Shown here piece by piece: positions 4,605-29,503 of a DNA stretch of 64,000 bases; within the stretch, counting starts at the first letter, position 1; every line of letters begins with the position of its first letter. A program made the translations under genes and the position numbers. The stretch comes from Nitrosomonadales bacterium (lineage in GTDB: Bacteria > Pseudomonadota > Gammaproteobacteria > Burkholderiales > Gallionellaceae): the NCBI GenBank assembly GCA_016199835.1, contig JACQFX010000017.1, positions 18,577 to 82,576 of the forward strand, read 5' to 3'. The notes below the pieces were generated by a model. That model did no database searches and was not told the origin of the DNA. It saw only the letters and a list, made by a program, of their open reading frames with translations.

Positions 4605-5359
4605 GCTGGTTTCCGGTTCTGCGCCCATGCTACCAAACCTTCGAGCAAGCCGTCATCTCCGCCTGCGGTCGCGGTCACTACCCGCCAGCCCTGGCGTTGC
4701 GCGGCAGCGGCGATGCGCTCGTGCTGCACGAACAATGGTATGGCGACAAGCTGCGCTCTGCCTTGTTCATCGAACATATCCCACAAATATCCCAGCGCTT
4801 CGCTGCTGGTTACGGTAATGGCGTCCGGTCCGGCAGCCAGCAATGCGGCGCCATCCTGTTGCGGTTTGCTGCGCTGGTAACATTCGGCATATTCCACGCT
4901 CGCGCCGCGTGCCTTGAGTGTATCGCCCAGCAGCTCGCGCCCGCCGTCGCCGCGAAAAATCGCGATGCGCCAGCCATCAACGTTCTGCAATTCGGGCAGG
5001 GCCAGCAGCGCTTCGCTATCGAAACGATCCTGCGGCGCAAGGATGCCGCTCACGCCCAACTCGCGCAGCACCCTGGCGCTGCCCTGGCCGACGCTGGCAA
5101 TCTTCAATGCGGCGGGTAATTCACGAATAGCCGCCATGCCGTAGCGCACCGCGTTGGGGCTGATGAAAATGGCGAGATCGAATTCGTGCAGGCGCGAGAC
5201 AAGTGCGCGCAGCGTTTGCGGATCGGCTGCCGGGCCGATCTCCAGCAAGGGGAACACTATGGCCTTGCCACCGGCCTGCGCGATGCGCTGCGCCAGTTGC
5301 GCCGCCTGTTCGCGCGGGCGGGTCACGGCGATGTTCAGTCCGGCAAGGGGCAAAGTCAT
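4601..5359 (-). CDS. hemD: Uroporphyrinogen-III synthase
   Basis: HemD-like sequence (LAGLNIAVTRPREQA...) downstream of hemC. The ATG at 5359 is preferred over the GTG at 5395. Confidence 0.8.
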   Translation of the reverse strand: MTLPLAGLNIAVTRPREQAAQLAQRIAQAGGKAIVFPLLEIGPAADPQTLRALVSRLHEFDLAIFISPNAVRYGMAAIRELPAALKIASVGQGSARVLRELGVSGILAPQDRFDSEALLALPELQNVDGWRIAIFRGDGGRELLGDTLKARGASVEYAECYQRSKPQQDGAALLAAGPDAITVTSSEALGYLWDMFDEQGRAQLVAIPLFVQHERIAAAAQRQGWRVVTATAGGDDGLLEGLVAWAQNRKPA

Positions 5360-12558: not shown

Positions 12559-13830
12559 ATGGTTCCCCATCTCGCCACAGCTTTGAAAGGCCCGCTGCTC
12601 GATCTCGAACACCGCATTCTTAACGCGCAGCCCGCCATCGAGCACTGGTTCCGCACGCAATGGCAGGAGCACACGCCGCCGTTCTATTCTTCGGTAGACT
12701 TGCGCAATGCCGGCTTCAAGCTCGCACCGGTGGACACCAACCTGTTTCCCGGCGGTTTCAACAACCTCAATCCGGATTTCCTGCCGCTGTGCGTGCAGGC
12801 AGTGCAGAGCGCGGTCGAAAAAATATGTCCGGAGGCGCGCGGCGTGTTGCTGGTGCCGGAGAACCACACGCGCAACCAGTTCTATTTGCAGAACGTCGCG
12901 CAGCTCGCGCTGATACTCAAGCAGGCCGGACTGAACACGCGCATCGGCAGCCTGCTGCCGGAGATCACGGCACCCACCACGCTGCAATTGCCCGGCGGCA
13001 GCTCGCTCACGCTGGAGCCGCTGCAGCGCAACGGCAACCGCCTCGGTGTGGAAGGCTTCGATCCCTGCGTGGTGCTGCTCAACAACGATTTGTCTGCGGG
13101 CGTACCTGAGATATTAAAAGGGCTGGAGCAGACCGTGTTGCCGCCGCTGCACGGGGGCTGGACCACGCGGCGCAAATCGCGCCACTTCACCGCATATGAC
13201 CGCATCGCCGATGATTTCGCCGCGTTGATCGGCATAGACCCGTGGCTCATCAACCCGTATTTCGCCACCTGCGGCAAGGTGGATTTCCATTCGCGCACGG
13301 GCGAGGATTGCCTCGCCTCGCATGTGGAAGCCGTACTGCACAAGACCCACGCGAAATACGTCGAGTACGGCGTCAAGGAAGCCCCTTTCGTCATCGTCAA
13401 GGCCGATGCGGGCACTTACGGCATGGGCATCATGACGGTGAAGGACGCCGACGAAGTGCGCGACCTCAACCGCAAACAGCGCAACAAGATGGCCGTGGGC
13501 AAGGAAGGGCTGCAGGTGCAGGAGGTGCTGGTGCAGGAAGGCGTCTACACCTTCGAGCGCATCACCGAAGCCGTGGCCGAGCCGGTGATCTACATGATAG
13601 ATCGCTATGTGGTGGGCGGCTTCTATCGCGTCCATACCGGGCGCGGCGTGGACGAGAACCTCAACGCGCCGGGCATGCATTTCGAGCCGCTCGCGTTCGA
13701 GCAGTGCTGCAGCCTGCCCAATCCCGATTGCGCGCCGGATGATGTGCCCAACCGTTTCTATGCCTACGGCGTGGTGGCGCGACTGGCGATGCTGGCGGCG
13801 GCGGCGGAACTGGAAGAAATGCAGCAATGA
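12559..13830 (+). CDS. gshA: Glutamate--cysteine ligase (T. ferrooxidans/betaproteobacterial GshA family)
   Basis: 423 aa. The N-terminal FYSSVDLRNAGFKLAPVDTNLFPGGFNNL and overall layout match the short proteobacterial GshA family as I recall it. Confidence 0.75.
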   Translation: MVPHLATALKGPLLDLEHRILNAQPAIEHWFRTQWQEHTPPFYSSVDLRNAGFKLAPVDTNLFPGGFNNLNPDFLPLCVQAVQSAVEKICPEARGVLLVPENHTRNQFYLQNVAQLALILKQAGLNTRIGSLLPEITAPTTLQLPGGSSLTLEPLQRNGNRLGVEGFDPCVVLLNNDLSAGVPEILKGLEQTVLPPLHGGWTTRRKSRHFTAYDRIADDFAALIGIDPWLINPYFATCGKVDFHSRTGEDCLASHVEAVLHKTHAKYVEYGVKEAPFVIVKADAGTYGMGIMTVKDADEVRDLNRKQRNKMAVGKEGLQVQEVLVQEGVYTFERITEAVAEPVIYMIDRYVVGGFYRVHTGRGVDENLNAPGMHFEPLAFEQCCSLPNPDCAPDDVPNRFYAYGVVARLAMLAAAAELEEMQQ

Positions 13831-14894
13831 TACGTTCCAGCCGTTCGCTGTTGCTCGCAATAGCCTTTCTGCTCTCTGCCTGCGGCAACAAAGAGCTGAC
13901 CACCTACGAAGAGCAAGGCTACGTGTTCGGCACGCTGGTGGAAGTCAGCGTATATGGCGAGGAGGATGCCAAAGCCCGGCAGGCAGTCAATGTGGTGATG
14001 CGTGAATTCCAGCGCCTGCACGATTTGCTGCATGCATGGAAGCCATCGGAATTGAGTTCATTGAATGCGGCCATCGCCAAGGGCGAGAGCCGCGAGATGC
14101 AGCCTGAAGTGGTTGCCATGCTGAAGGATGCCGGGCAGCTTTCAGCACAAGGAGACGGTTTGTTCAATCCGGCTATCGGCGGATTGATCAAGCTGTGGGG
14201 ATTCCAGGCCGACGAATTCAAGTCGGCGCTGCCGGATGAAAAATCCATCGCGGCGCTGGTGGCGGCAAAACCGCAGATGAGCGATCTCGCCCTCTCTCCC
14301 AGCCCCGCTCCCGCGAGCGGGAGAGGAGAGTTGGTAGGCAGCCGCAACAAGGCCGTGCTGCTCGACCTTGGCGGCTATGCCAAAGGCTACGCGCTGGATC
14401 GCGCGGCAGAGTTGCTGAAACAGCAGGGTGTACACAATGCGCTGATAAATATCGGCGGCAACGTGCTGGCCATGGGACAGCATGGCGACCGCGCCTGGCG
14501 CATCGGCATCCAGCATCCGCGCAAGCCGGGGCCGATCGCCACACTGGAGTTGCACGACGGCGAGGCCATCGGCACCTCGGGCGATTATCAGCGTTTCTTT
14601 GAATATGGCGGCAAACGCTACTGCCATCTGATCGATCCGCGCAGCGGCTATCCGGCGCAGGGCGTGCAGGCGGTCACCATTCTGACCCATGGCGCGCGCG
14701 CCGGAACCTTGTCGGACGCGGGTTCCAAGCCGCTGTTCATTTCCGGCAGCGCGGGCTGGCGTGAAATGGCGCGCAGGATGAATCTGAATGAGGCGCTGCT
14801 GATAGACGGCGAGGGTGTGGTGCATCTCACCGCCGCGATGCAGAAACGGCTAGAATTCACGGAGCCCGCCACCATCAGGAAGGTCGAGCCATGA
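13827..14894 (+). CDS. apbE: FAD:protein FMN transferase ApbE (lipoprotein)
   Basis: Lipobox LLSAC, then ApbE motifs LDLGGYAKGYALD, GTSGDYQRFF and HLIDPRSGYP. ATGA overlap with the gshA stop. Confidence 0.9.
   Translation: MIRSSRSLLLAIAFLLSACGNKELTTYEEQGYVFGTLVEVSVYGEEDAKARQAVNVVMREFQRLHDLLHAWKPSELSSLNAAIAKGESREMQPEVVAMLKDAGQLSAQGDGLFNPAIGGLIKLWGFQADEFKSALPDEKSIAALVAAKPQMSDLALSPSPAPASGRGELVGSRNKAVLLDLGGYAKGYALDRAAELLKQQGVHNALINIGGNVLAMGQHGDRAWRIGIQHPRKPGPIATLELHDGEAIGTSGDYQRFFEYGGKRYCHLIDPRSGYPAQGVQAVTILTHGARAGTLSDAGSKPLFISGSAGWREMARRMNLNEALLIDGEGVVHLTAAMQKRLEFTEPATIRKVEP
14285..14335 (+). repeat. GC-rich hairpin-forming in-frame insert inside apbE (encodes LSPSPAPASGRGE)
   Basis: CTCCC-GCGAGC-GGGAG core with CTCTC/GAGAG outer arms. 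Encodes a Pro/Gly-rich peptide just before the conserved LDLGG block. Confidence 0.4.
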
Positions 14895-14964
14895 ATACAC
14901 TGGAACAGGATCGCATCAAGCGCAGCGTGCAGCGCACGGCAGGCGTTATTTGGGAGTCATCTGA

Positions 14965-15393
14965 GTGATAGGAATTTTATTGATAACGCATAACGGCCTG
15001 GGTGACAGTCTGGCGGATTGCATAAAGCATGTGATGGGTAGTGTGCCGGACAACCTCAAGACTTTGTCGGTGCTGGCAAGCGATGATCCGCAACTCAAGG
15101 AAGACGAGGCGCGCGCTTTGATCGCGCAACTTGATACGGGCGAAGGCGTGCTGTTATTGTCTGACTTGTTCGGCTCGACGCCATGCAACATCGCGCGGCG
15201 GTTATGCCAGCCGGGTCGGGTGGAGGGGCTGGCCGGGGTGAGCCTGCCCATGCTGCTGCGCGCTGTATGCCACAGCGGCAAGCCGCTGCAAGAGGTCATG
15301 CAGAAAGCGCTGGAGAGCGGGCGCCAGTGCATGATGGATATCAATTCTGAATCGGGAAGCTGCGATGTTGCAACAGGATGCACTGATTATTAA
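14965..15393 (+). CDS. PTS EIIA component, mannose/fructose family
   Basis: MIGILLITHNGLGDSL with the phosphorylatable His in the ITH context. GTG start. Followed by HPr and EI. Confidence 0.85.
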   Translation: MIGILLITHNGLGDSLADCIKHVMGSVPDNLKTLSVLASDDPQLKEDEARALIAQLDTGEGVLLLSDLFGSTPCNIARRLCQPGRVEGLAGVSLPMLLRAVCHSGKPLQEVMQKALESGRQCMMDINSESGSCDVATGCTDY

Positions 15394-17524: not shown

Positions 17525-18658
17525 TTGAACACATCGGTCGGTATCGTCTACGCGCAGCGCGCAATCTTCGACACGCCGCTCACCTTCAGGAGCGGCGCCG
17601 TGCTGCCGCGCTACGAATTGGTGTATGAAACTTACGGCACATTGAACGCCGACAAGTCCAATGCCATCCTGGTATGTCACGCGCTGTCCGGCCACCATCA
17701 CGTTGCGGGCCATTACGCCGATGCGCCGGAGAACGTGGGCTGGTGGGACAACATGATCGGCCCCGGCAGACCCGTCGACACCGATAAATTCTTCGTCATC
17801 GGCCTGAATAATCTCGGCGGCTGCCACGGCTCCACCGGACCTTCCAGCATCAACCCGGAAACCGGCAAGCCTTATGGCGCAAGTTTTCCGGTGGTGACCG
17901 TGGAAGACTGGGTCGAGTCGCAGGCACGGCTCGCCGATCTGCTCGGCATCACACAATTCGCCGCCGTGATGGGCGGCAGCCTGGGCGGGATGCAGGCCAT
18001 GCAATGGTCGCTGTCGCATCCTGAACGCGTGCGCCATGTGCTGGCGATTGCGACTGCGCCGCATCTGACGGCAGAGAACATCGCATTCAACGACGTGGCG
18101 CGCAACGCCATCCTGACCGACCCCGATTTCCACGGCGGCGATTTCTATCAGCATGGCGTGGTGCCTACGCGCGGCCTGCGTCTGGCGCGCATGCTGGGTC
18201 ACATCACCTATCTGTCCGACGATGCAATGGCGGACAAGTTCGGGCGCAGCCTGCGCGCGGGCAAGCTCGGTTACAACTACGGTATCGAGTTCGAGATCGA
18301 ATCCTACCTGCGCTATCAGGGAGACAAGTTCGCAGCCTATTTCGACGCCAACACCTATCTGCTGATGACCAAGGCGCTGGATTATTTCGACCCGGCACGC
18401 GAATTCAAGGGCAGTCTGGACAAGGCGTTTGCCGTTTCACGCGCGGACTTCCTGGTGCTGTCGTTCACTACCGACTGGCGTTTCTCGCCCGATCGTTCGC
18501 GCGAGATTGTGCAGACACTGCTGCACAATCATCTGAACGTAAGTTATGCCGAGATCGCCTCGACGCACGGGCATGACTCGTTCCTGATGGAGCATGAGCA
18601 TTATCACGAAGTGATGCGTGTATATCTCGACAGAATCGCGAAGGAATTTTCCGCATGA
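17525..18658 (+). CDS. metX: Homoserine O-acyltransferase MetX (acetyl- or succinyl-transferring)
   Basis: Alpha/beta hydrolase MetX motifs: [26 protein letters not shown] (nucleophile Ser), HGHDSFL. TTG start as listed. Confidence 0.92.
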
Positions 18659-19269
18659 GCGCGCACGATCCTGCCGAACTCGCCGCCGCGCGCCCGGACT
18701 TCGCCGCCATCGCGGCATGGATACCCGAAGGCGCGTCCGTGCTCGACCTCGGCTGCGGCGACGGCAGCCTGTTGCGCCACCTGAAAGAGACTCGCAAGGT
18801 GCGCGGCTACGGTGTGGAAATCAGCGACGAGAATATTGTCGCCTGCATCAGGAATGGCGTAAACGTAATCCAGGGCGATCTGGATTCTGGCTTGTCAGGT
18901 TTCGAGACGCTGGCGTTCGATTACGTCATCCTGTCACAGACGCTGCAAGCCACGCGCCACACCGAAGCACTGGTGCGCGAAATCCTGCGCGTAGGTAGTG
19001 CAGGCATCGTCAGTTTCCCCAACTTCGGTCACTGGAAAGCCCGCCTCAACGTGTTGCGCGGCCACATGCCGGTGTCGGAGGAGCTGCCCTATCAATGGTA
19101 CGACACGCCCAACGTGCACCTGTGTACCTTGCACGACTTCGAGGACTTCTGCACCAAATGCCAGGTGCAAATTCTGGAACGCCGCGTGATGACTGACGGT
19201 ATCGAAGTGAATCTGCTGCCGAATCTGCTGGGCAGCATGGCGGTGTATCGGTTCAAGCGCGCGGGATAA
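18655..19269 (+). CDS. metW: Methionine biosynthesis protein MetW
   Basis: SAM-methyltransferase-like [12 protein letters not shown] motif. Overlaps the metX stop by 4 nt, giving the classical metXW pair. Confidence 0.92.
19186..19269 (+). repeat. Direct repeat copy 1 (functional 3' end of metW)
   Basis: 84 nt match 20782-20865 at 79/84 positions, with the stop codon at the same relative position. Confidence 0.9.
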
Positions 19270-19308
19270 GGTTCCGCTGCATAAGTAATCTTCTGGCATG
19301 CGAAGACT

Positions 19309-19340
19309 AAAACGGGGAAGCGGCAACGCTTCCCCGTTTT
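19309..19340 (+). terminator. Rho-independent terminator after metW
   Basis: Perfect 14-bp stem AAAACGGGGAAGCG-GCAA-CGCTTCCCCGTTTT. Confidence 0.85.
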
Positions 19341-19436
19341 CCGGATTTCTAAATTCTCACCTTGCCTTGTTTTAGTTTTTGCGTAAAATATAAAAAACAG
19401 ATCGGGCTTATTTTAATTCAGGGAAAAGGCGTTCCG

Positions 19437-20561
19437 ATGAAAAGCTTCCAGGCTGGCCGGTATACCCAGCGTGCGCATTACAAAAGCTTCCAGCCCGCCC
19501 CCATCAACCGCGCATGGGTCGTGGACGACATGAGCCTGCTCCAGTTGCTCGGACAGGCAGACCGGGAACTGGGCCGACTGGACATGTATTCCGAGTACAT
19601 TCCGAATATAGACCTGTTCATCCGCATGCATGTGCTGAAAGAAGCGACGCAATCGAGCAAGATCGAAGGCACGCAAACCAATATGGAAGAAGCGCTGCTG
19701 GCAAAGGAAGATGTTGCAGTGGAGCGGCGCGACGACTGGGAAGAAGTGCATAACTATGTGGCCGCGATGAACCGGGCCGTGGACAGGTTGCAGACGTTGC
19801 CCTTTTCTGCGCGACTGATCCGCGAAACCCACAAGACGCTGATGCAAGGCGTGCGCGGCAAGCACAAGCAACCGGGCGAGTTCAGGCACAGCCAGAACTG
19901 GATCGGCGGGGCGAGTATCAACGATGCGATATTCATACCGCCGAGCCATGAGACGGTCGGCGAACTGATTACCGACATCGGAAAATTCGTCCACAACGAG
20001 CAGCAATATTTTCCGGAATTGCTGAAAGCGGCGCTGGTGCATTACCAGTTCGAAACCATCCACCCTTTTCTCGACGGCAATGGCCGCGTGGGGCGCCTGC
20101 TCATCACCTTGTATCTGGTGAGCCGGGGAATATTAAAACAGCCCGTGCTTTACCTGTCGGACTTTTTCGAGCGCAACCGTCAACTTTATTATGACAACCT
20201 GATGCGGGTGCGGGAAAAGAACGACCTGCAGCAATGGTTCAAGTTCTTTCTGGTGGGTGTGATCGAAACAGCCAAGAGCAGCACCACCACATTCGACAAC
20301 ATCCTCAAGCTGCAAAAGCAAGTGGAGATCCAGTTGCAAACCTTGGGCAGCCGCGCGGCCAATGCGCAGAAGGTCATGTATCACCTGTACCAGCATCCGA
20401 TGGTCGATGCGGCCAAGGTGGGCGCGGTAGCAGAAGTTTCTCCCGCCTCGGCCTACAAATTGATTGCCGATCTGGAACACTTCGGCATACTGCGGGAAAT
20501 TACCGGGGCGAAGCGTGGCAAGATGTACGCATTCGATGCCTACCTGAAACTGTTCAAATAG
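19437..20561 (+). CDS. Fic family protein (Fic_N + Fic + C-terminal wHTH), class II with internal inhibitory motif
   Basis: Active-site HPFLDGNGRVGR. N-terminal inhibitory-helix motif SSKIEG ((S/T)xxxE(G/N)). wHTH-like C-terminal end. The ATG at 19437 is preferred over the listed upstream start. Confidence 0.85.
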   Translation: MKSFQAGRYTQRAHYKSFQPAPINRAWVVDDMSLLQLLGQADRELGRLDMYSEYIPNIDLFIRMHVLKEATQSSKIEGTQTNMEEALLAKEDVAVERRDDWEEVHNYVAAMNRAVDRLQTLPFSARLIRETHKTLMQGVRGKHKQPGEFRHSQNWIGGASINDAIFIPPSHETVGELITDIGKFVHNEQQYFPELLKAALVHYQFETIHPFLDGNGRVGRLLITLYLVSRGILKQPVLYLSDFFERNRQLYYDNLMRVREKNDLQQWFKFFLVGVIETAKSSTTTFDNILKLQKQVEIQLQTLGSRAANAQKVMYHLYQHPMVDAAKVGAVAEVSPASAYKLIADLEHFGILREITGAKRGKMYAFDAYLKLFK

Positions 20562-20595
20562 CCATTGTCATCACGCACTACGAAATCGAGAAAAC

Positions 20596-20865
20596 ATGCT
20601 CACAGGCAAACTCCGCAACCAAGTCGATAAAATCTGGCTGACCTTCCACTCTGGCGGCGTCACTAATCCGCTCGCAGTGATTGAACAATTCACCTACCTG
20701 CTCTTCATTCGCCGCCTCGACGACATCCACACCCTCAAGGAAAAAGCGGCCAACGCCTTTGGCACGCCCATCGACCGCCCCGTGATGACTGACGGCATCG
20801 AAGTGAACCTGCTGCCGAATCTGCTGGGCAGCATGGCGGTGTACCGGTTCAAGCGGGCGGAATAA
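20596..20865 (+). pseudogene. Chimeric remnant: N-terminal ~62 codons of a second type I methylase (hsdM') fused in frame to a duplicated metW 3' end
   Basis: MLTGKLRNQVDKIWLTFHSGGVTNPLAVIEQFTYLLFIRRLDD is an HsdM N-terminal domain of a different family from the intact hsdM downstream. From 20782 the ORF becomes [27 protein letters not shown], matching the metW C-terminus. Confidence 0.8.
20782..20865 (+). repeat. Direct repeat copy 2 (orphan metW 3' end)
   Basis: Five differences from 19186-19269. Four are synonymous third-codon positions (GGT/GGC, AAT/AAC, TAT/TAC, CGC/CGG) and one is G->E in the last codon. Confidence 0.9.
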
Positions 20866-20923
20866 ATAATGCCGCATCGGCGGCCGTCACCGGCATTTCT
20901 CAATTCGATAATTCCGGATCACC

Positions 20924-22438
20924 ATGTTCGAACAAACCTTCAAAAATATCGACGACGTCCTGCGCAAAGAAGCAGGCTGCGCCAGCGAACTGGACTACAC
21001 CGAACAAAGCTCCTGGCTGCTGTTCCTCAAATACCTCGACGCGCTGGAGCACAGCAAAGCGATGGAAGCCGAACTGGAAGGAAAAAAGTACACCTGGCTG
21101 CTCGACAAACCCTACCGCTGGGAAACCTGGGCCGCACCCAAAGGCAAGGACGGCAAGATCGACCACAACGCCGCCATGACCGGCGACGACCTGCGCGACT
21201 TCGTCAACCAGACGCTGTTCCCCTACCTGCACCGCTTCAAGGAAAAAGCCGACAACTCCAAAACGCTGGAATACAAAATCGGCGAAATCTTCGGCGAGAT
21301 CAAGAACAAAATCCAGAGCGGCTACAACCTGCGCGACATCATCGAGCACATCGACGAACTGCGCTTCGGCTCGCAAGCCGAGAAGCACGAACTCTCACAC
21401 CTGTACGAAGCCAAGATTAAAAACATGGGCAACGCCGGGCGCAACGGCGGCGAGTACTACACCCCGCGCCCGCTCATTCGCGCCATGGTGCAAGTGGTCA
21501 ACCCCAAGATCGGTGAAACCATCTACGACGGCGCCTGCGGCAGCGCGGGCTTTTTGTGCGAAGCATTCGATTACCTGCGCTCTGGTCGCAGCACCGCTCC
21601 CGGTTCCGTTCGCCCTGAGCCTGTCGAAGGGTTGAACGGCGCACCGACAGGATTGACTACGCGCGACCTAAAAACCCTGCAAGAATCCACCTTCTACGGC
21701 ATCGAAAAGAAAAGCCTCGCCTACGTCATCGCGATCATGAACATGATCCTGCACGGCATCGAAGCGCCCAACATCGCCCACGCCAACACCCTCGCGCTCA
21801 ATCTCGCCGACGTGCAGGACAAAGACCGCTTCGACATCGTTCTCGCCAACCCGCCCTTCGGCGGCAAGGAACGCAAGGAAGTGCAGCAAAACTTCCCCAT
21901 CAAGACCGGCGAAACCGCCTTTCTGTTCTTGCAGCACTTCATCAAGTTTCTGAAAGCGGGCGGACGCGGCGCAATCGTCATCAAGAACACCTTCCTCAGC
22001 AACACCGACAACGCCTCGGTGAGCCTGCGCAAACACCTGCTGGAAAGCTGCAACCTGCACACCGTGCTCGATTGCCCCGGCGGCACCTTCCAGGGCGCGG
22101 GCGTGAAGACCGTGGTGCTGTTCTTCGAGAAAGGCGCACCGACGCGCAAGGTCTGGTACTACCAACTCGAACCCGGCCGCAACATGGGCAAGACCAACCC
22201 GCTCAACGATGCCGACCTCGCCGAATTCATCGCATTGCAAAAGACCTGCGCCGATTCACCCAAGAGCTGGAGCGTGGATGTGGCGAGCATCGACCCCGCG
22301 ACGTTCGATCTCTCGGTGAAGAATCCCGATGGCGGCGAAGCGGTGGTGCACCGCAGCCCGCAGGACATCATGGACGAGATCGCCGCGCTGGATGCGGAGG
22401 GTGCGGAAGTGCTGGGGAATATCAGGGCGCTGTTATGA
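20924..22438 (+). CDS. hsdM: Type I restriction-modification system DNA methyltransferase subunit M
   Basis: HsdM_N (SELDYTEQSSWLLFLKYLD), AdoMet motif DGACGSAGFL, catalytic NPPFG. Confidence 0.95.
   Translation: MFEQTFKNIDDVLRKEAGCASELDYTEQSSWLLFLKYLDALEHSKAMEAELEGKKYTWLLDKPYRWETWAAPKGKDGKIDHNAAMTGDDLRDFVNQTLFPYLHRFKEKADNSKTLEYKIGEIFGEIKNKIQSGYNLRDIIEHIDELRFGSQAEKHELSHLYEAKIKNMGNAGRNGGEYYTPRPLIRAMVQVVNPKIGETIYDGACGSAGFLCEAFDYLRSGRSTAPGSVRPEPVEGLNGAPTGLTTRDLKTLQESTFYGIEKKSLAYVIAIMNMILHGIEAPNIAHANTLALNLADVQDKDRFDIVLANPPFGGKERKEVQQNFPIKTGETAFLFLQHFIKFLKAGGRGAIVIKNTFLSNTDNASVSLRKHLLESCNLHTVLDCPGGTFQGAGVKTVVLFFEKGAPTRKVWYYQLEPGRNMGKTNPLNDADLAEFIALQKTCADSPKSWSVDVASIDPATFDLSVKNPDGGEAVVHRSPQDIMDEIAALDAEGAEVLGNIRALL
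21581..21655 (+). repeat. GC-rich in-frame insert inside hsdM (encodes ...GRSTAPGSVRPEPVEGLNGAPTGL...)
   Basis: Imperfect hairpin CCGTTCGCCC...GGGTTGAACGG (21606-21639). The Pro/Gly-rich peptide lengthens the segment between the DGACGSAGFL and YGIEK blocks. Confidence 0.35.
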
Positions 22439-23582
22439 GAGTAGGGTGGCAAACAAGCACCTTAGGCAATACCTGCGAGTTGTATCAGCCTAAAACTATC
22501 TCTGGAAAAGAGTTGGTGGAGGACGGCGCATATCCAGTTTTCGGTGCCAATGGCATCATTGGTCGCTACGACAAATTCAATCACGAAGAGCCTCAGCTTC
22601 TCATAACGTGCCGTGGTGCAACTTGCGGGTCGGTGAATATCTCGGAACCCAAGTCTTGGATTACAGGCAACGCGATGGTAGTTCGCCCGAAAAATGTATC
22701 TATCGAAATGCGATTTTTGGAATATCTATTTCGAGGCGGAATAGACATCTCCAAAGCAATCACAGGTGCTGCACAGCCACAGATAACTCGGACGAATCTT
22801 GCGCCGCTCGAAATCAATTACCCCGTGGATATTTCAGAACAGCAGCGCATCGTCGGCATTCTCGACGAAGCGTTTGACGGCATCGCCACCGCCAAAGCCA
22901 CCGCCGAACAGAACCTGCAAAACGCCCGCGCCCTGTTCGAAAGCCACCTGCAATCCGTCTTCACCCAGCGCGGCGAGGGGTGGGTGACGACAACGCTCGG
23001 TTCAGAAATTGATCTTCTTGCAGGGTTCGCATTTAAGAGCGCCCAATACACAAATAACGATGATGACATTCGCCTACTCAGAGGCGATAACATCATTCAA
23101 GGTTGCCTACGTTGGGATGATGTTAAGAAATGGCCTGCTACCGACACAACCCTCTACGACCGATACCAGATTCGCGAAGGTGATGTTGTCTTGGCGATGG
23201 ACCTTGGGTTAAGGCGGGTTTGAAGCACGCGATTATCACTGCGGATGATCTGCCCTGTTTGCTCGTCCAACGAACAGCTCGTCTTCGTGGCGGGGCGAAT
23301 CTCGATAATCGTTTTTTGATGTTTCTCATCGGAAGCGCGGCTTTCACTAGCCATATTCTTGGTGTTCAGACGGGGATTGGTGTTCCACACATCAGCGGTC
23401 AACAAATTCAAGACTTCGAGTTCGCTAGGCCGCCAATCGGCGAGCAGAGACGCATTGCTGATAAACTCGACTCCCTCCGCGAAGAAACCCAACGCCTCGA
23501 ATCCCTCTACCAGCGCAAGCTCGCCGCCCTCGACGAACTGAAGAAGTCGCTGCTGCATCAGGCGTTCAGCGGGATGCTTTAA
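22435..23582 (+). pseudogene. hsdS: Type I R-M specificity subunit S, disrupted by a -1 frameshift in the second target-recognition domain
   Basis: ATGA overlap with the hsdM stop. TRD1 plus the central conserved region (EQQRIVGILDEAFDGIATAKA) plus the start of TRD2 are in one frame and stop at 23223. The rest (PWVKAGLKHAII...RRIADKLDSLREE...LLHQAFSG) continues in another frame. Restoring one C at 23202-23204 (CC to CCC) joins them as ...LAMDPWVKAGLK.... Confidence 0.8.
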
Positions 23583-23633
23583 TGAGCTATTCCCCGTACA
23601 ATTCTGCAATTCCTGCCTAGCCGGAGCGCCGTT

Positions 23634-24479
23634 ATGAATGCCCAACGCATAGCCAACCAGCACCACGCCACCTTTGAAAGCATCCGCCAGAAGGATGCGG
23701 ACGGAAATGAGTTCTGGTCTGCCCGCGATTTACAACCGCTGCTGGAATACGCCACTTGGGACAAGTTCAAGCGCGTTATTGAGAAGGCGATAGAGGCTTG
23801 TGGTCAGTCCGGCAATGACGCCGAGGACCATTTTTCCCAAACGGGAAAAATGGTCGATATTGGCTCTGCTGCCAAGCGCGAGATCGAGGACTACCGGCTT
23901 TCCCGTTATGCCTGCTACCTGATTGTGCAGAATGGCGATCCTTCCAAGTCGGTTATCGCCAATGGACAAACCTATTTTGCGTTACAGACGCGGCGTCAGG
24001 AGCTGAATGACGACGAGAAATTTGCGCGTTTGTCGGAAGACGAAAAGCGTCTGGCGATCCGCAACGAACTGGCCGAGCACAACAAACAGCTCGCCGCCGC
24101 GGCCAAGGATGCCGGGGTGGATACGCCGCTCGATTACGCGATCTTTCAGGATCACGGTTACAAGGGGCTGTACGGAGGCATGGGGGCGAAAGACATTCAT
24201 GCTCGCAAGGGGCTGAAGAAGAGCGAGAAGATACTCGACCACATGGGCAGCACCGAACTGGCAGCCAATTTGTTCCGCGCTACACAGGCGGAAGAAAAGT
24301 TGAAGCGGGACAATATCAGCGGCAAGCAGCGCGCCAATCAGGCGCATTTCGAAGTGGGTCAGAAAGTACGCCAGACTATCCAGGAGCTGGGCGGCACCAT
24401 GCCGGAGAATTTGCCTGTGCCAGAGCAAAGCGTGAAGAAGATCGAAAGAGCGAAGATGAAGCTGGATAAGAAGAAGTGA
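23634..24479 (+). CDS. dinD: DNA damage-inducible protein D homolog
   Basis: Colinear similarity to E. coli DinD as I recall it: SRYACYLIVQNGDPSK, GQTYFALQTRRQEL, MGSTELAANLFRATQAEEKLKRD, VRQTIQELGGTMPE. Confidence 0.85.
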   Translation: MNAQRIANQHHATFESIRQKDADGNEFWSARDLQPLLEYATWDKFKRVIEKAIEACGQSGNDAEDHFSQTGKMVDIGSAAKREIEDYRLSRYACYLIVQNGDPSKSVIANGQTYFALQTRRQELNDDEKFARLSEDEKRLAIRNELAEHNKQLAAAAKDAGVDTPLDYAIFQDHGYKGLYGGMGAKDIHARKGLKKSEKILDHMGSTELAANLFRATQAEEKLKRDNISGKQRANQAHFEVGQKVRQTIQELGGTMPENLPVPEQSVKKIERAKMKLDKKK

Positions 24480-24599
24480 CGGGGCAGACCATGTCGAGGA
24501 CATTCTCGATAGGGTTCGGATGTGATAAGCAATTACCGTTTTCTGAACATGTTGCCTGCTACGTGATCAGTAAGCCTCATTTTCTTTACATGTCCATGC

Positions 24600-24650
24600 C
24601 ATCGACATATCGGCAGGTTATGTCGATGAAACGAGAATAAATCGACACAT
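24600..24650 (+). promoter_or_regulatory. Operator-like repeats (10-bp inverted repeat CATCGACATA-N9-TATGTCGATG plus a third ATCGACACAT copy) upstream of Fic-hsdR
   Basis: Perfect 10-bp arms at 24600-24609 and 24619-24628, with a third copy at 24641-24650. Three TTGAC motifs follow at 24676-24704 in an AT-rich 243-bp gap. Confidence 0.4.
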
Positions 24651-24722
24651 CCGGTCAAGCCCGACTTGATGCGGCTTGACACAAAACTTGACTTATACTT
24701 GACTCTCGATTAGCCTTTTTCC

Positions 24723-25730
24723 ATGGCTTATATCCCTCAATTTTCCATTACTCCAACCCTGCTTGCCGAAGTTGAGCAGGTGGCGGCGTTGCGCGAGCGC
24801 ATTCAAAGTGCCGTGGTTGACCTTGCGTGGATACCTGCTCTCCAGAAAGACACCCGCACGCGCAACGTCCACGCTTCGACGGCCATCGAGGGAAACCCGC
24901 TGACTCTCGAACAGGTGCGTGCATTGGAGGAGGGCCGTGAGCTTTCTTCTTCCGGTGCACGACCCAAGCGGGAAGTCATCAATTATTTTGCCGGGCTGCG
25001 TTACGTGGAAAAAAATGCGGATAAGAAAGTTATCCGTCAGGCGGACATTCTGGAGTTGCACCGGATTTTGGCGGGGGAAGTAATGGATCAGGGCGAAGCC
25101 GGAAAGTATCGAATGATCGCTGTTCGGGTCGGGCAATATCTTCCTCCGCCGCCCGATGCCGTTTCCGGTCTGATGTTCGAGTTGCTGGAGTGGTGGAACA
25201 CGGCCGCAAAAAAACTTTCGCCGGTTCTCAGTTCAGCCATCCTGCATTACCGTTTCGAGGTCATCCATCCGTTTGCCGACGGTAACGGGCGCACAGGCCG
25301 TGCGCTTGCGCTGTGGGAGCTTTATCGGCGCGGCTTCGATACGCACCACATTTTTTCGGTGGACGAGTATTACTGGGAAGATCGCCCGGCATACTATGCC
25401 GCATTGCAAGGTGTGCGCGAGGCCGGGGAGGATATGAGCGCATGGCTGGAATACTGTGCGGCGGGACTGCGGCAAACGCTGGAACGGGCATGGCTGCGGA
25501 TACAAACCTTGCAGGTGAAGTCTGCGGAGAAACTGGTTTTGCGTCCAAGGCAGGAGCAGCTTCTGCATCTGCTGCGCGATCATGGCGGCATGGCTCCCGC
25601 TGAAATATGGGAGGCGTTGGGCGTGTCTAGGCAGGGGGCGATGGATTTGCTGCGTCCGCTGCTGGATGCGGGGGTGGTCGAGAAGGTCGGCGGGAATAAA
25701 ACTGGCCGGTACGTTTTAAAAAATTCATGA
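24723..25730 (+). CDS. Fic family protein with C-terminal wHTH (class II, internal inhibitory motif), translationally coupled to hsdR
   Basis: HPFADGNGRTGR active site, inhibitory motif STAIEG, and a C-terminal wHTH-like segment. Its stop overlaps the hsdR ATG (ATGA at 25727-25730). Confidence 0.85.
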   Translation: MAYIPQFSITPTLLAEVEQVAALRERIQSAVVDLAWIPALQKDTRTRNVHASTAIEGNPLTLEQVRALEEGRELSSSGARPKREVINYFAGLRYVEKNADKKVIRQADILELHRILAGEVMDQGEAGKYRMIAVRVGQYLPPPPDAVSGLMFELLEWWNTAAKKLSPVLSSAILHYRFEVIHPFADGNGRTGRALALWELYRRGFDTHHIFSVDEYYWEDRPAYYAALQGVREAGEDMSAWLEYCAAGLRQTLERAWLRIQTLQVKSAEKLVLRPRQEQLLHLLRDHGGMAPAEIWEALGVSRQGAMDLLRPLLDAGVVEKVGGNKTGRYVLKNS

Positions 25731-28189
25731 ACGAAGCCGAAACCCGTGCCGAACACATCGATCCCGCGCTGAAAGCCGCAGGCTGGGGCGTGGTGGAGGG
25801 CAGCCGGGTGATGCGCGAATACCGCATCACCGAGGGGCGCTTGCAAGGTGCGGGGCAGCGCAGCAAGCCGGAGATTGCGGACTATGTGCTGGTGTATCGC
25901 AACCACAAGCTGGCGGTGATCGAAGCGAAGCGCTGGGATTTGCCGCACACCGAGGGCCTGGCGCAGGCCAAGACGTATGCGGGTAAGTTACGTGCACGTT
26001 TTACTTATGCCACCAACGGCCAGCGCATCTACGGCGTGGATATGCAGAGCAGTGTGGAAGGCGATGTGGATGCCTATCCAACACCCGAAGAATTGTGGAA
26101 TCGCACCTTTGCCGAAACGAATGATTGGCGCGAGCGTTTCGCTGCCGTGCCATTCGAGGACAAGGGCGGCATGTGGGGCTCGCGTTACTACCAGGACAGC
26201 GCAATCAACAATGTGCTGGAGGCGGTGGCCGATAACCAGCAGCGCATTCTGCTGACGTTGGCGACGGGAACAGGCAAGACCTTCATTGCGTTTCAGTTGG
26301 CGTGGAAATTGTTCAAGTCGCGCTGGAATCTGAAACGCGATGCGGCGCGTCAGCCGCGTATTTTGTTTTTGGCCGATCGCAACATTCTTGCGGATCAGGC
26401 TTACAACTCGTTCTCGGCTTTTCCCGAAGACGCGCTGGTGCGCATTGCGCCGGATGATATTCGCAAGAAGGGGCGGGTGCCGAAGAACGGGAGTGTGTTC
26501 TTTACGATCTTTCAGACCTTCATGAGCGGGCCTGCTGCACAGCCCCTTCCTCCGGGCAGGGGGAAGGTTGGGATGGGGGTGGAAGAGCAGATTAGCCCCG
26601 ACGTTTCTACCCCCTCCCTGGCCCTCCCCCTGCATGGGGGAGGGAATGAAACTTCAAGCGGCGCTCAGCCCGAGCGGGCTTTCTATTTCGGCGAGTACCC
26701 GCCAGACTTTTTCGATTTCATCGTCATCGACGAATGTCATCGCGGCGGGGCGAACGACGAGAGCACCTGGCGTGGCATCCTCGAATATTTTGCGCCTGCG
26801 GTGCAGCTCGGTCTGACCGCCACGCCCAAGCGCCGCGACAACGCAGACACTTACGCCTACTTTGGCGAGCCGGTGTATGTGTATTCGCTGAAGGAGGGTA
26901 TCAACGACGGCTTCCTCACGCCGTTCCGCGTGAAGCAGTACGCCACCACGCTGGACGAGTATGTGTACACCTCGGACGACAATGTGGTCGAGGGCGAGAT
27001 CGAAGCCGGGAAGCTGTACGAGGAAAAGGATTTCAACCAGAGCATCGAGATTGAGGCGCGCGAGAAGTATCGTGTGAAACTTTTCATGGATGCGATCAAC
27101 CAGCGCGAGAAAACACTGGTGTTCTGCGCCAATCAGAAGCACGCGCTGCTGGTGCGCGACCTGATCAATCAGATGAAAACGGCCAGTGCCGATCCGCTGT
27201 ATTGCGTGCGAGTGACGGCCAACGATGGCGCGCTGGGCGAACAGTATCTGCGCGACTTTCAGGACAACGAGAAGAGCATCCCGACCATCCTCACCACGTC
27301 GCAGAAACTTTCCACCGGGGTGGATGCGCGCAACGTGCGCAACATCGTGCTGATGAGGCCGATCAATTCGATGATCGAGTTCAAGCAGATCATCGGGCGC
27401 GGCACACGGCTGTACGACGGCAAGGATTACTTCACGATTTACGATTTCGTGAAGGCGCACAAGCTGTTCAACGACCCGGAGTGGGATGGTGAGCCTATCG
27501 AGGTGGGTAATAGCGGCGACAAGGAATTCCCGCCAACCGTTCCCAAGCCACAGCCGGATGCAAAACAGTCGAGTGCCGAATACGAAGCGAAGAAAAAAGT
27601 GCGCGTGAAACTGCGCGACGGCAAAGAGCGCAATCTCCAGCATATTTCGGTGACGACTTTCTGGGGGCCGGACGGCAAGCCGATTTCGGCTGCTGAATTT
27701 CTGACGCTGCTGTTCGGCGAACTGCCCGCGTTCTTCAAAGATGAGGATGAGTTGCGCGCGCTCTGGAGCTTGCCGGATACGCGCAAGAAGCTGCTCGAAG
27801 GTCTGGCGGAAAAAGGCTACGACAAAGATCAGCTATGCGAAATGCAGAAGATCATTGACGCCGAGAACAGCGATCTATTCGACGTGCTGGCGCATGTGGC
27901 GTTTGCGATGCAGCCGATTACTCGTGAAGAGCGTGCGAGTGTTGCGTATAGAGAGGTGCAGGAACGCTTCAGCGACAAGCAACAAACCTTCCTCGACTTT
28001 GTGCTGGCTCATTACGTGCAGGAGGGCGTGGAGGAACTGGAGCAGGAGAAGCTGACGAAGCTGTTGCGCCTGCGCTACCACGATTCCATACCCGATGCGG
28101 TGGCCGACCTGGGCGGCGACATCACGGAGATACGCAATCTGTTTGCCGGTTTTCAGCGCTACCTGTATCAGGGCGAGACTGCGTTGTGA
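25727..28189 (+). CDS. hsdR: Type I restriction enzyme endonuclease/helicase subunit R
   Basis: N-terminal nuclease domain (NEAETRAEHIDPAL, ADYVL...IEAK), Walker A TGTGKT, DEAH-type VIDECHRG, and helicase C motifs QIIGRGTR. Confidence 0.95.
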   Translation: MNEAETRAEHIDPALKAAGWGVVEGSRVMREYRITEGRLQGAGQRSKPEIADYVLVYRNHKLAVIEAKRWDLPHTEGLAQAKTYAGKLRARFTYATNGQRIYGVDMQSSVEGDVDAYPTPEELWNRTFAETNDWRERFAAVPFEDKGGMWGSRYYQDSAINNVLEAVADNQQRILLTLATGTGKTFIAFQLAWKLFKSRWNLKRDAARQPRILFLADRNILADQAYNSFSAFPEDALVRIAPDDIRKKGRVPKNGSVFFTIFQTFMSGPAAQPLPPGRGKVGMGVEEQISPDVSTPSLALPLHGGGNETSSGAQPERAFYFGEYPPDFFDFIVIDECHRGGANDESTWRGILEYFAPAVQLGLTATPKRRDNADTYAYFGEPVYVYSLKEGINDGFLTPFRVKQYATTLDEYVYTSDDNVVEGEIEAGKLYEEKDFNQSIEIEAREKYRVKLFMDAINQREKTLVFCANQKHALLVRDLINQMKTASADPLYCVRVTANDGALGEQYLRDFQDNEKSIPTILTTSQKLSTGVDARNVRNIVLMRPINSMIEFKQIIGRGTRLYDGKDYFTIYDFVKAHKLFNDPEWDGEPIEVGNSGDKEFPPTVPKPQPDAKQSSAEYEAKKKVRVKLRDGKERNLQHISVTTFWGPDGKPISAAEFLTLLFGELPAFFKDEDELRALWSLPDTRKKLLEGLAEKGYDKDQLCEMQKIIDAENSDLFDVLAHVAFAMQPITREERASVAYREVQERFSDKQQTFLDFVLAHYVQEGVEELEQEKLTKLLRLRYHDSIPDAVADLGGDITEIRNLFAGFQRYLYQGETAL
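26537..26670 (+). repeat. GC-rich palindromic in-frame insert inside hsdR (encodes AAQPLPPGRGKVGMGVEEQISPDVSTPSLALPLHGGGNETSSGAQ)
   Basis: Two hairpins: CCTTCC/GGAAGG (26545-26567) and a 9-bp stem CCCTCCCCC-TGCAT-GGGGGAGGG (26622-26644). The insert lies between Walker A and the DEAH box. Confidence 0.5.
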
Positions 28190-28231
28190 TGAGGCACACT
28201 GTCCGCTTTGCGGATCTTTAAAGGATCACCC

Positions 28232-29503
28232 ATGTCCGTCTGGCAACAACTCTTCACCCGCCGCATGCTGATCTGCGTGTTCACCGGATTCTCTTCCGGC
28301 CTGCCGCTGTACCTGCTGTTCAACCTCGTGCCTGCATGGTTGCGCAGCGAACATGTCGATCTGAAAACCATAGGCTTGTTCGCGCTGATCCAGTTTCCCT
28401 ATACCTGGAAATTTTTATGGTCGCCGCTGCTGGATCGCTATGTGGTGCCCGCCTTCGGCAGGCGGCGCGGCTGGATGCTGCTGACGCAGATCGGCTTGTT
28501 TGCGGTGATCGCCGCGATGGGCGGGTTCTCGCCACAAAGCGATCTGCGCACCATCGCGTGGACCGCCACACTGCTCGCCTTTCTCAGCGCCACGCAGGAC
28601 ATCGTGCTGGATGCCTATCGCCGCGAACTGTTGTCTGACGCCGAACTGGGGCTGGGCAACTCGGTGCATGTGAACGCCTACCGCATCGCGGGGCTGGTGC
28701 CGGGTTCGCTGTCGCTGATCCTCGCGGATTTTTTGCCGTGGGACAGTGTGTTCATGGTCACCGCGTTGTTCATGCTGCCGGGCATGGCGATGACGTTGCT
28801 GGTGACGGAGCCGCATCGCGCTGCGCCGCCCAAAACTTTGCGCGAAGCGGTGGTCGAGCCGTTCCATGAATTCATCACGCGCCGGGGCTGGAACAGCGCG
28901 CTGCTGATCCTCGCCTTCCTGTTCTTCTACAAACTCGGCGACAGCATGTGTACTTCACTGGCCACGCCGTTCTATCTCGACATGGGTTTCACCAAGACGC
29001 AGATCGGGCTGATCGCCAAGAATGCCGGACTGTGGCCTGCCGTGATCGGCGGTTTGCTCGGCGGTTTATGGATGGTGAAGATCGGCATCAACCGCGCGCT
29101 GTGGCTGTTTGGCGTGGTGCAGGTGGTGTCCATCTTCGGCTTCGCCTGGCTGGCTTCGGTGGGGCATCATGATGAGATCACTTCCGTGGAACTGGCCCAG
29201 CTCGCCCTCGTGATCGGCCTCGAAGCGCTGGGCGTAGGATTGGGTACTGCGGCCTTCGTCGCCTTCATCGCGCGCGCCACAAATCCCGCTTACACCGCCA
29301 CACAGTTCGCACTGTTCACCAGCCTCGCCGCCATGCCGCGCACCTTTGCCAACGCGGCGACCGGCTGGCTGGTGGAGGCAGCAGGGTGGATGGGATTTTT
29401 TTTATTGTGCGCAGTCCTGGCACTGCCGGGGATGTTGCTGCTGCTCAAGGTTGCGCCGTGGAGGGATGGGGCTCAGCATGGGCAGACCGATAAAAATTCC
29501 TGA
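28232..29503 (+). CDS. ampG: Muropeptide MFS permease AmpG
   Basis: MFS protein with the AmpG-like N-terminus FTGFSSGLPLYLLF..LPAWL and WKFLWSPLLDRY. ATG at 28232 is preceded by AAAGGA. Confidence 0.85.
   Translation: MSVWQQLFTRRMLICVFTGFSSGLPLYLLFNLVPAWLRSEHVDLKTIGLFALIQFPYTWKFLWSPLLDRYVVPAFGRRRGWMLLTQIGLFAVIAAMGGFSPQSDLRTIAWTATLLAFLSATQDIVLDAYRRELLSDAELGLGNSVHVNAYRIAGLVPGSLSLILADFLPWDSVFMVTALFMLPGMAMTLLVTEPHRAAPPKTLREAVVEPFHEFITRRGWNSALLILAFLFFYKLGDSMCTSLATPFYLDMGFTKTQIGLIAKNAGLWPAVIGGLLGGLWMVKIGINRALWLFGVVQVVSIFGFAWLASVGHHDEITSVELAQLALVIGLEALGVGLGTAAFVAFIARATNPAYTATQFALFTSLAAMPRTFANAATGWLVEAAGWMGFFLLCAVLALPGMLLLLKVAPWRDGAQHGQTDKNS

Follow-up and report, generated by a model that had tools for sequence, protein, structure and literature searches.

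Fic and DinD-family genes embedded in a type I restriction-modification island between metW and ampG of a Nitrosomonadales bacterium

The window analysed here, that is the whole 64,000-nucleotide (nt) stretch of contig JACQFX010000017.1 from a Nitrosomonadales bacterium, holds an 8.9-kb type I restriction-modification (R-M) island in the interval between metW and ampG, and in the gap between the specificity gene hsdS and the restriction gene hsdR of this island lie two further genes, one encoding a DinD-family protein and the other a Fic protein with a winged helix-turn-helix (wHTH) at its C-terminus, here called Fic-2. We consider it fairly probable that these genes are independent cargo, each self-contained, in a bay of variable content within a type IB R-M locus, and that Fic-2 is an abortive-infection enzyme similar to SoFic. 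All genes of the island are on the forward strand and form one co-oriented array, which according to the open reading frame (ORF) listing and profile searches reads metW, Fic-1, a remnant of hsdM (hsdM'), hsdM, a frameshifted hsdS, DinD, Fic-2, hsdR and ampG. A preliminary description of the sequence had given this gene order, including the remnant, the frameshift and the location between metW and ampG, and it is borne out here, as is the placement of the cargo between hsdS and hsdR, which agrees with the coordinates. The same description spoke of two autoinhibited Fic-wHTH proteins, and catalytic as well as inhibitory motifs are indeed present in both.

The island observation is thus real and non-random. 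Nonetheless it is largely an ordinary example of defence genes nested in R-M operons, a layout that recurs in many bacteria, and both the cargo families and the embedding principle have already been published; what is new is the constraint on the Fic-2 clade, its promoter, its overlap with hsdR, and a resemblance of DinD to the DdrC protein of Deinococcus radiodurans.

Fic-2 and its predicted promoter

Fic-2 (24723-25730, forward strand) is a class II Fic protein of 335 residues whose core is FICD-like and which ends in a wHTH domain (approximately 25545-25727), as identified by matches to Pfam Fic (4e-21) and to MarR_2/HTH families. Its inhibitory motif STAIEG is found at residues 52-57 (Glu56; 24876-24893) and aligns with the equivalent segment of the structure 4RGL, and its catalytic motif HPFADGNGRTGR is found at residues 182-193 (25266-25301) with His182 as the catalytic histidine. 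Fic-2, like Fic-1 at the left end of the island, combines the pattern HxFx(D/E)GNGRxxR with an N-terminal (S/T)xxxE(G/N) motif in the same polypeptide, and judged by these motifs both are autoinhibited class II Fic AMP-transferases for which AMPylation is predicted; neither is degenerate, since both are full length and have intact catalytic motifs.

Fic-2 matches the PADLOC models SoFic (2.1e-57, positions 54-349 of 361) and PDC-S04 (1.9e-23), and compared by sequence with the PDB it finds 4RGL (8e-30) and human FICD (approximately 1e-28), but SoFic at only 1e-12. It is furthermore far below the cutoff of the NCBIfam SoFic equivalog NF046030 (73 versus 550 bits), and by its sequence Fic-2 represents a distinct class II Fic-wHTH clade. 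The ratio of nonsynonymous to synonymous substitution rates (dN/dS) is 0.03-0.09 at dS 0.3-1.7, which indicates very strong purifying selection. The AlphaFold2 model of Fic-2 was poor, with a predicted local distance difference test (pLDDT) score of 53.8 overall and 80-85 in the wHTH part, the homologues being too similar to each other, and it was not used for fold search. In two loci, L001 (approximately 3300-3431) and L128, the Fic-2 cassette was seen by eye to lie directly downstream of an apparent tRNA 3' end and a terminator hairpin, which is a typical integration point of islands.

Immediately upstream of Fic-2 lies a predicted promoter and candidate operator (24675-24722, forward strand) that is conserved in all Fic-2 homologues examined. 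It contains three CTTGAC direct repeats at positions -48/-43, -36/-31 and -25/-20, spaced by 12 and 11 nt or approximately one helical turn, and the second repeat supplies the -35 hexamer TTGACT (24688-24693), which is followed by a 17-nt spacer, the -10 sequence TAGCCT (24711-24716) and, after 6 nt, the ATG. Across 60 distinct sequences CTTGAC at -48/-43, AACTTGACT at -38/-30, ACTTGAC at -26/-20, T-12, A-11 and T-7 are 97-100% invariant, with intervening positions varying freely, and in the same 60 sequences no Shine-Dalgarno sequence was found upstream of the Fic-2 ATG. This element of approximately 50 nt is found upstream of every homologue examined, be it R-M-linked or solo (including L001, L006-L014 and L095-L175), and it has been kept although the dS of the coding sequences is above 1 for many of these pairs, so that synonymous sites are saturated. 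The arrangement TTGACT-17-TAnnnT-6-ATG would correspond to a sigma-70 promoter giving a leaderless mRNA that starts at the start codon, and the CTTGAC repeats are a candidate operator for the wHTH of Fic-2 itself, by analogy with the wHTH-Fic proteins CccR and SoFic, both of which bind their own promoters (bioRxiv 10.64898/2026.07.09.737422).

Further upstream, a conserved non-coding stretch (24488-24665, no strand assigned) is apparent from alignment with L096, L097, L099-L101, L105 and L172. It is present in a subset of the Fic-2 loci only and includes an inverted repeat of 10 bp, CATCGACATA (24600-24609) and TATGTCGATG (24619-24628), with a third TCGACA at 24640-24649; the arms of the inverted repeat are conserved and the loop is variable, the fold z-score is -2.4 on the forward strand, and the stretch has no Rfam match. 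A 54-residue ORF in the gap between DinD and Fic-2 (24476-24640) was considered as an antitoxin and rejected, having no Pfam match and a conservation pattern that looks non-coding.

Coupling of Fic-2 to hsdR

In the window the start codon of hsdR overlaps the stop codon of Fic-2 as ATGA (25727-25730). Fic-2 was surveyed in 80 metagenome loci, with encoded proteins 81-96% identical and at least 400 nt of downstream sequence, and the same overlap is found in 39 of these, with a 3-nt gap in three more. The hsdR gene 3' of Fic-2 is full length in 20 loci and cut by the contig end in another 20, and approximately 38 loci have no detectable hsdR downstream. At least 8-12 of the solo copies hold only a partial hsdR, mostly its first 20-75 codons (for instance L104, L116, L137, L148, L164, L099, L100, L105 and L157), and because solo copies keep these 5' remnants, linkage to R-M appears to be the ancestral state of the clade. 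It is plausible from this arrangement that hsdR is translationally coupled to Fic-2 and that the two form one expression unit. Such a unit, in place of expression from hsdMS, had been proposed from the start; the ATGA coupling and the conserved promoter-like element speak for it, while the unit itself is only plausible.

This coupling may suggest that Fic-2 is mainly a controller of HsdR, with the wHTH setting fic-hsdR transcription in the manner of a C-protein, with reversible AMPylation switching HsdR for restriction alleviation or safe establishment in a new host, or with both. Such a role is favoured by an invariant and repeat-bearing promoter for a message predicted to run into hsdR, and it is furthermore in line with the ancestral appearance of the R-M-linked state as well as with the properties of relatives, given that CccR and SoFic bind their own promoters and that class II Fic proteins are bifunctional AMPylases and deAMPylases (bioRxiv 10.64898/2026.07.09.737422). 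However, the approximately 38 loci without detectable hsdR have an equally conserved gene and promoter, with dN/dS still approximately 0.04 for L014 and L001, and Fic-2 must therefore have a function that is independent of HsdR. In addition, many EcoAI-family DinD loci, such as L001 and L005, are without any Fic. Control of HsdR as the main function of Fic-2 hence seems unlikely, but it is kept alive as one of the two main rivals, together with the guard model discussed below, by the tightness of the Fic-2/hsdR coupling.

The DinD protein

The second cargo gene (23634-24479, forward strand) encodes a DinD-family protein with a Bro-N domain and a helical C-terminal half, which matches NCBIfam PRK11525 with 450.5 bits (cutoff 242) over residues 4-280 and is 64-66% identical to E. 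coli dinD in tblastn. It also matches the PADLOC model PDC-S13 (PDLC04919; 3.5e-124, positions 1-272 of 281), and it is embedded in an R-M locus. The gene begins 51 nt past hsdS and is probably co-transcribed with hsdMS. A consensus scan for the LexA box (CTGT-N8-ACAG, at most one mismatch) gave no match in the 51-nt hsdS-dinD spacer or in any other intergenic region of the island. With dN/dS of 0.07-0.14, DinD is under strong purifying selection.

An AlphaFold2 model built with 34 diverse homologues has a pLDDT of 93.3, and when it was searched with Foldseek the best matches among solved structures were three entries of D. radiodurans DdrC, with probability 1.0 and E-values from 9e-6 to 2e-3. 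The alignment spans approximately 240 columns at 15-17% identity with template modelling (TM) scores of 0.37-0.47, and DdrC is the sole significant match among solved structures; among viral structures the model matches regulators and antirepressors of the Bro-N/KilA-N type. DdrC is a protein that binds DNA breaks and bridges them. The likeness is a lead by which homology is not established, and the searchable literature contains no paper connecting DdrC with DinD. For E. coli DinD an inhibition of RecA filaments was reported by Uranga et al. (2011; cited in PMC10602874), and this activity is known for that protein only. It is plausible in light of the model that DinD acts at type I cleavage ends, for example by limiting recombinational rescue of restricted DNA or by modulating restriction alleviation.

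The spread of DinD was surveyed by scanning one genome of each species with a sequence pattern, which gave at least 592 relatives of which the best 80 were examined, the loci being labelled with hidden Markov models (HMMs) built from the window proteins. Of two alignments, A1 was too diverse and the closer A2 was used, and the survey accordingly covers relatives at 63-81% identity from many phyla. In 41 of the 80 loci hsd genes are directly adjacent to DinD, in the orders M-DinD-S-R, R-S-DinD-M and M-S-DinD-R, and in 37 no hsd gene is present and the neighbours are housekeeping genes where the flanks are long enough. Plasmid copies adjoin partition genes, integrases and toxin-antitoxin (TA) pairs, and homologues are also found beside satellite elements. 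In L001 and L005 the order hsdM-hsdS-DinD-hsdR occurs at other chromosomal sites, with DinD but without Fic.

Two side observations concern DinD and HsdS. In many M-DinD-S-R loci (L027, L029, L047, L055, L058, L062, L065 and others) the HsdS HMM labels an ORF of approximately 200 residues just upstream of hsdM, some 2 kb upstream of DinD, which may be a half-HsdS or a product of HMM drift. Furthermore, the PADLOC model PDLC03083, a 717-residue model named Specificity_I, aligns with DinD along its first 270 positions (4e-119). The DinD-HsdS fusion that this suggests was unconfirmed, with no HsdS domain in ten long DinD representatives, and the model is possibly mis-merged.

Independent distribution of DinD and Fic-2

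Co-occurrence was assessed as raw counts. DinD is present in none of the 80 metagenome Fic-2 loci, and any Fic is present in only 5 of the 41 R-M-embedded DinD loci, where it is a non-orthologous class II protein 25-35% identical to Fic-2. These five, in which DinD and a class II Fic lie inside type I loci of distant lineages, are L032, L047, L052, L078 and L092. Related arrangements are found in L006-L013, with rph/hsdM-hsdS-(Schlafen/AlbA_2 ATPase)-DinD-(ParE/RHH)-Fic-hsdR/rdgB, and in L175, with purD/hsdM-GIY-YIG-hsdS-Fic-hsdR/slyX. Since the two distributions are independent, DinD and Fic-2 appear as independent cargo that share one bay here, and the hsdS-hsdR gap is best read as a variable cargo bay.

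This bears directly on the model put forward in the preliminary description, in which DinD as sensor and Fic-2 as effector form a guard like PrrC, latent with an intact type I complex and triggered by an anti-restriction protein. The model draws on the fact that the cargo occupies the prrC position in the hsdS-hsdR gap, on the translational coupling of Fic-2 and hsdR in 39 of 80 loci, on the recurrence of DinD with some class II Fic in type I loci of five distant lineages, and on the DinD-like N-terminus of PDLC03083, which hints at DinD-HsdS fusions unless it is an artefact. The pair is however not conserved, as 36 of the 41 embedded DinD loci are without Fic and no Fic-2 locus has DinD, and L095, which is allelic to the island in the window, has Fic-2 without DinD. 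Moreover, Fic-2 and DinD are each free of R-M genes in approximately half of their loci, unlike PrrC, with some solo Fic-2 copies keeping short hsdR 5' remnants, and the ten long DinD representatives include no fusion to HsdS. A joint action of the two proteins is thus contradicted by their distributions, and the guard model as a whole seems to us quite unlikely.

Likewise, the notion that DinD and Fic-2 make up an undescribed defence combination did not hold, in that Fic-wHTH proteins are of the known SoFic type, that DinD is PDC-S13 and has been drawn inside type I loci, and that embedding is published. Membership in defence-associated families was on the other hand confirmed by the PADLOC matches to SoFic, PDC-S13 and PDC-S04, and Fic-2 and DinD are under strong purifying selection. 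The survey of such cargo in R-M loci that had been called for gave a mixed answer, since DinD is R-M-adjacent in 41 of 80 loci and Fic-2 has hsdR in approximately half, but the pair is not conserved.

Fic-1 and the history of the metW site

Fic-1 (19434-20561, forward strand) is a class II Fic AMP-transferase of the SoFic type that has an HTH at its C-terminus and matches Pfam Fic_N and Fic. It covers positions 4-358 of 361 of the PADLOC SoFic model (2.5e-120) and aligns over its full length (residues 16-360) with the SoFic structures 3ZCN/3EQX in the PDB (1e-33), although it is below the cutoff of the equivalog NF046030 (163 versus 550 bits). Its inhibitory motif SSKIEG is found at residues 74-79 (19653-19670) and its catalytic motif HPFLDGNGRVGR at residues 210-221 (20061-20096). 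Fic-1 is by sequence a Fic of the SoFic type, a known type of single-gene anti-phage system, and a defence role is predicted for it by family.

The left flank is formed by metX (17525-18658, forward strand, from the ORF listing) and metW (18655-19269, forward strand, Pfam MetW 2.2e-71), which is followed at approximately 19310-19341 by a hairpin resembling an intrinsic terminator, found by reading the sequence, with arms GGGGAAGCG/CGCTTCCCC and then a T run. The right flank is an ampG-like permease of the major facilitator superfamily (28208-29503, forward strand, MFS_1 4.5e-22, Acatn 4e-14). The GC content of the island is 0.50-0.58, compared with 0.59-0.63 in the flanks. The window DinD protein is 100% identical to a protein of a Nitrosomonadales metagenome-assembled genome (MAG), the source being such a genome, and exact-sequence look-ups of the window MetW, Fic-1 and DinD returned no record.

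Between Fic-1 and hsdM lies a chimeric remnant ORF of 89 residues (20596-20865, forward strand, HsdM_N 1.2e-6, PADLOC MTase_I 4.7e-13), in which approximately residues 1-63 correspond to the N-terminus of HsdM and are fused in frame to a diverged metW 3' end. Indeed the last 93 nt of metW are duplicated as a direct repeat at 19177-19269 and 20773-20865 with 92% identity, and the chimeric ORF is by its sequence a scar of an earlier recombinational replacement at the metW site. The metagenome contig L095, from a relative, has at the same metW/ampG site the order hsdM-hsdS-Fic-2-Phd/PIN-hsdR with neither Fic-1/hsdM' nor DinD; its metW is 78% identical and directly abuts hsdM, like the second metW copy in the window, and its Fic-2 and AmpG proteins are 96% and 92% identical to those of the window. 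Relative to L095, positions 23574-24665 of the window form an indel within which DinD falls, and the TA pair of L095 (Phd/YefM and PIN, 810 nt, 4338-5146) has 19 nt of the hsdR start duplicated at its flanks. Another Nitrosomonadales MAG, L179, has a 91% identical Fic-1 homologue that precedes a different type I hsdM by 21 nt, in the order Fic-1-hsdM-hsdS-KwaAB-MNT/HepT-hsdR, with Kiwa (KwaA/KwaB) and MNT/HepT in the S-R gap (12788-15125). A descent of the hsdM' remnant from an hsdM of the L179 type was rejected, as the two have no similarity and homology to L179 ends at the Fic-1 stop codon.

The simplest history would be that metW once adjoined an older Fic-1/type I locus, part of which was overwritten when an allele running from metW' and hsdM through hsdR to ampG came in, with DinD gained here, or lost in L095, as a separate event, and the metW/ampG site is best read as a recombination-prone hotspot of cargo swapping. 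We note separately that the conserved hsdR 5' end is a possible recombination handle for cargo exchange, compare the hsdR 5' remnants of solo Fic-2 copies and the 19-nt duplication in L095.

The contents of these bays also bear on the view that the cargo consists of selfish addiction or stabilizing modules, or of mobile-element genes hitch-hiking without an anti-phage role. TA pairs of the types ParE/RHH, Phd/PIN and MNT/HepT occur in the same bays, DinD homologues are found beside plasmid partition genes, integrases and satellite elements, and Fic/Doc proteins are classical toxins; TA modules in such positions are however often defensive themselves. In L179 this bay holds Kiwa, which is validated as a defence system, and proteins of the SoFic type have measured anti-phage activity (PMC12249575). 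We consider purely selfish cargo very improbable.

The restriction-modification backbone

The methyltransferase gene hsdM (20924-22438, forward strand) is intact and encodes an N6-adenine methyltransferase (N6_Mtase 1.5e-59, PADLOC MTase_I 5e-160) with an NPPF motif and the motif DGACGS for AdoMet binding. The specificity gene hsdS is split into two ORFs (22435-23223 and 23220-23582, forward strand), both of which match Methylase_S, so that both halves are present but in different frames, and not as one intact HsdS with two target-recognition domains; the intact HsdS proteins of L049, L053 and L088 align across the frame switch at approximately 23196-23211. No homopolymer or repeat tract is found at this site, and because it is no repeat tract the break is a point frameshift or an assembly error and not obvious phase variation, an assembly error being conceivable since the source is a MAG. 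The restriction gene hsdR (25727-28189, forward strand) belongs to the EcoAI (type IB) family with 816 bits against NF046051 (cutoff 550), and it has the domains ResIII, SWI2_SNF2 and EcoEI_R_C as well as the D...EAK motif of a PD-(D/E)xK nuclease and the motif DECH. Judged from its genes the backbone is thus an EcoAI-family (type IB) R-M system of the layout hsdM-hsdS...hsdR, and its restriction and modification activities are predicted.

Two insertions interrupt the backbone genes without disturbing the frame, one in hsdM resembling a repetitive extragenic palindromic (REP) element and translated as VRPEPVEG (approximately 21605-21650), and one in hsdR in the form of an imperfect palindrome (approximately 26548-26645). 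Both REP-like insertions sit in surface loops, where L001 and L005 have insertions of other lengths and L006 has none. The HsdM and HsdR insertions resemble in-frame palindromic elements known from other bacteria. A scan of the intergenic regions of the island against Rfam found no known RNA, and only sub-threshold miRNA-like matches on the palindrome within hsdR. The notion that the island is a decaying locus whose arrangement has no current function, to which the hsdS frameshift, the hsdM'::metW' chimera and the palindromic insertions might point, deserves scarcely any weight in view of the full-length hsdM, hsdR, DinD, Fic-1 and Fic-2 with intact catalytic motifs, the strong purifying selection on the cargo genes, the loop insertions being in frame and in varied forms common to intact homologues, and the possibility that the hsdS frameshift is a MAG assembly error.

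Relation to known systems

SoFic, represented by proteins of S. oneidensis and E. coli, is a class II Fic-wHTH protein and a single-gene anti-phage system with measured activity (PMC12249575). It AMPylates switch I of the elongation factor EF-Tu and can remove this modification again, it inhibits translation, and it binds to its own promoter (bioRxiv 10.64898/2026.07.09.737422). In architecture Fic-1 agrees with SoFic, and Fic-2 shares its domain logic of inhibitory Glu, Fic core and wHTH and likely an autoregulated promoter. Fic-2 differs in having a core nearer to 4RGL and FICD without a Pfam Fic_N match, in being fused translationally to hsdR in approximately half of its copies, and in not being followed by a small antitoxin gene like AS1.

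The cargo further resembles PrrC of EcoprrI in that the hsdS-hsdR gap is occupied by a gene foreign to R-M and in that the predicted effector would, by analogy with SoFic and EF-Tu, back up restriction by a shutdown of translation. Only approximately half of the Fic-2 and DinD loci are linked to R-M, however, whereas PrrC is reported to be almost exclusively R-M-embedded by Payne et al. (bioRxiv 10.1101/2024.01.29.577857), and furthermore Fic-2 is predicted to AMPylate whereas PrrC cleaves tRNA, and latency imposed by R-M is known for neither cargo gene. According to the same preprint, the PDC candidates were derived by 'guilt by embedding' from genes within BREX, DISARM and type I R-M loci; DinD and Fic-2 match the models PDC-S13 and PDC-S04, but the preprint treats the candidates singly and not as a pair. 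The name PDC-S13 was not found in a full-text search of the literature. A published drawing of the gonococcal type I locus NgoAV includes DinD (bioRxiv 10.64898/2026.01.10.698759), and loci in which a coding sequence for a dinD domain or for Fic/DOC separates core hsd genes are listed in a survey of invertible hsdS genes (PMC9881135).

The DinD protein of the window agrees with E. coli DinD at the level of an equivalog, but its gene lies in an R-M context instead of standing alone and is without a LexA box. With DdrC, its best structural match, DinD shares an association with DNA damage, although identity is low and the TM score modest. As in R-M systems with C-proteins, an HTH-bearing gene precedes and overlaps the restriction gene and there are repeats in the promoter; Fic-2 is however an enzyme of 335 residues compared with 70-100 for C-proteins, it also occurs without a restriction gene, and its repeats are direct and not palindromic C-boxes.

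Proposed function and significance

In the reading of Fic-2 and DinD as self-contained cargo, DinD would be an accessory that binds DNA or DNA ends, as a homologue of the E. coli inhibitor of RecA filaments with a predicted DdrC-like fold. Fic-2 would be transcribed as a leaderless message from its own invariant promoter, its wHTH probably binding the CTTGAC repeats in autoregulation, and hsdR would be translated from the same message by way of the ATGA overlap. Infection would then relieve the autoinhibition of Fic-2, which would AMPylate an essential host protein, the likeliest candidate by analogy with SoFic being EF-Tu or another translation GTPase, and the resulting shutdown of translation would abort the infection as a second layer behind restriction. 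Fic-1, the hsdM' fragment and the duplicated metW end would be leftovers of a partly replaced Fic-1/type I locus.

Several points weigh against this proposal. The promoter and the transcription start site are read from the sequence only, the -10 sequence agrees with TATAAT at 3 of 6 positions, and a generic scan for promoters and terminators, in which match counts equalled the shuffled expectation, missed the conserved site. The frequent 4-nt overlap together with the hsdR 5' remnants hints at a tie to HsdR that is tighter than expected of passive cargo. Fic-2 with its 73 bits and its nearest relatives in 4RGL and FICD is not an orthologue of SoFic, and EF-Tu as its target is therefore an extrapolation. 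Furthermore, hsdS is frameshifted and this copy of the R-M system may consequently be inactive, the TM score between DinD and DdrC is modest, and no functional defence test in the searchable literature concerns a member of the Fic-2 clade or an R-M-embedded DinD.

A bolder proposal, which we likewise regard as unlikely, would make the Fic-2 clade a dedicated fourth component of EcoAI-family type I systems, with a leaderless promoter autoregulated by Fic and with coupled translation from a message shared with HsdR. Such a component would monitor HsdR or the complex and, once restriction fails because it is blocked or overwhelmed, abort infection by AMPylating HsdR itself or a translation factor, with a DdrC-like DinD acting on type I cleavage ends. 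If this were true, the solo Fic-2 copies with hsdR 5' remnants would be derived escapees.

The island illustrates the published principle that defence genes nest in restriction operons and that such sites swap their cargo by recombination, and the window, L095, L175 and L006 form a natural allelic series, at this one site and at neighbouring ones, that is well suited for cargo-swap experiments. Its interest rests on the Fic-2 promoter, on the coupling to hsdR and on the lead from DinD to DdrC, and not on the gene combination. The function of DinD has been obscure since its discovery as an SOS gene, and the fact that approximately half of its close homologues lie inside type I loci, together with a model resembling a break-binding protein, suggests a role at the DNA ends made by restriction. 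A strongly constrained Fic clade with an invariant, triple-repeat, leaderless promoter and recurrent translational fusion to hsdR could likewise show how abortive infection based on AMPylation, or post-translational control, is wired to restriction.

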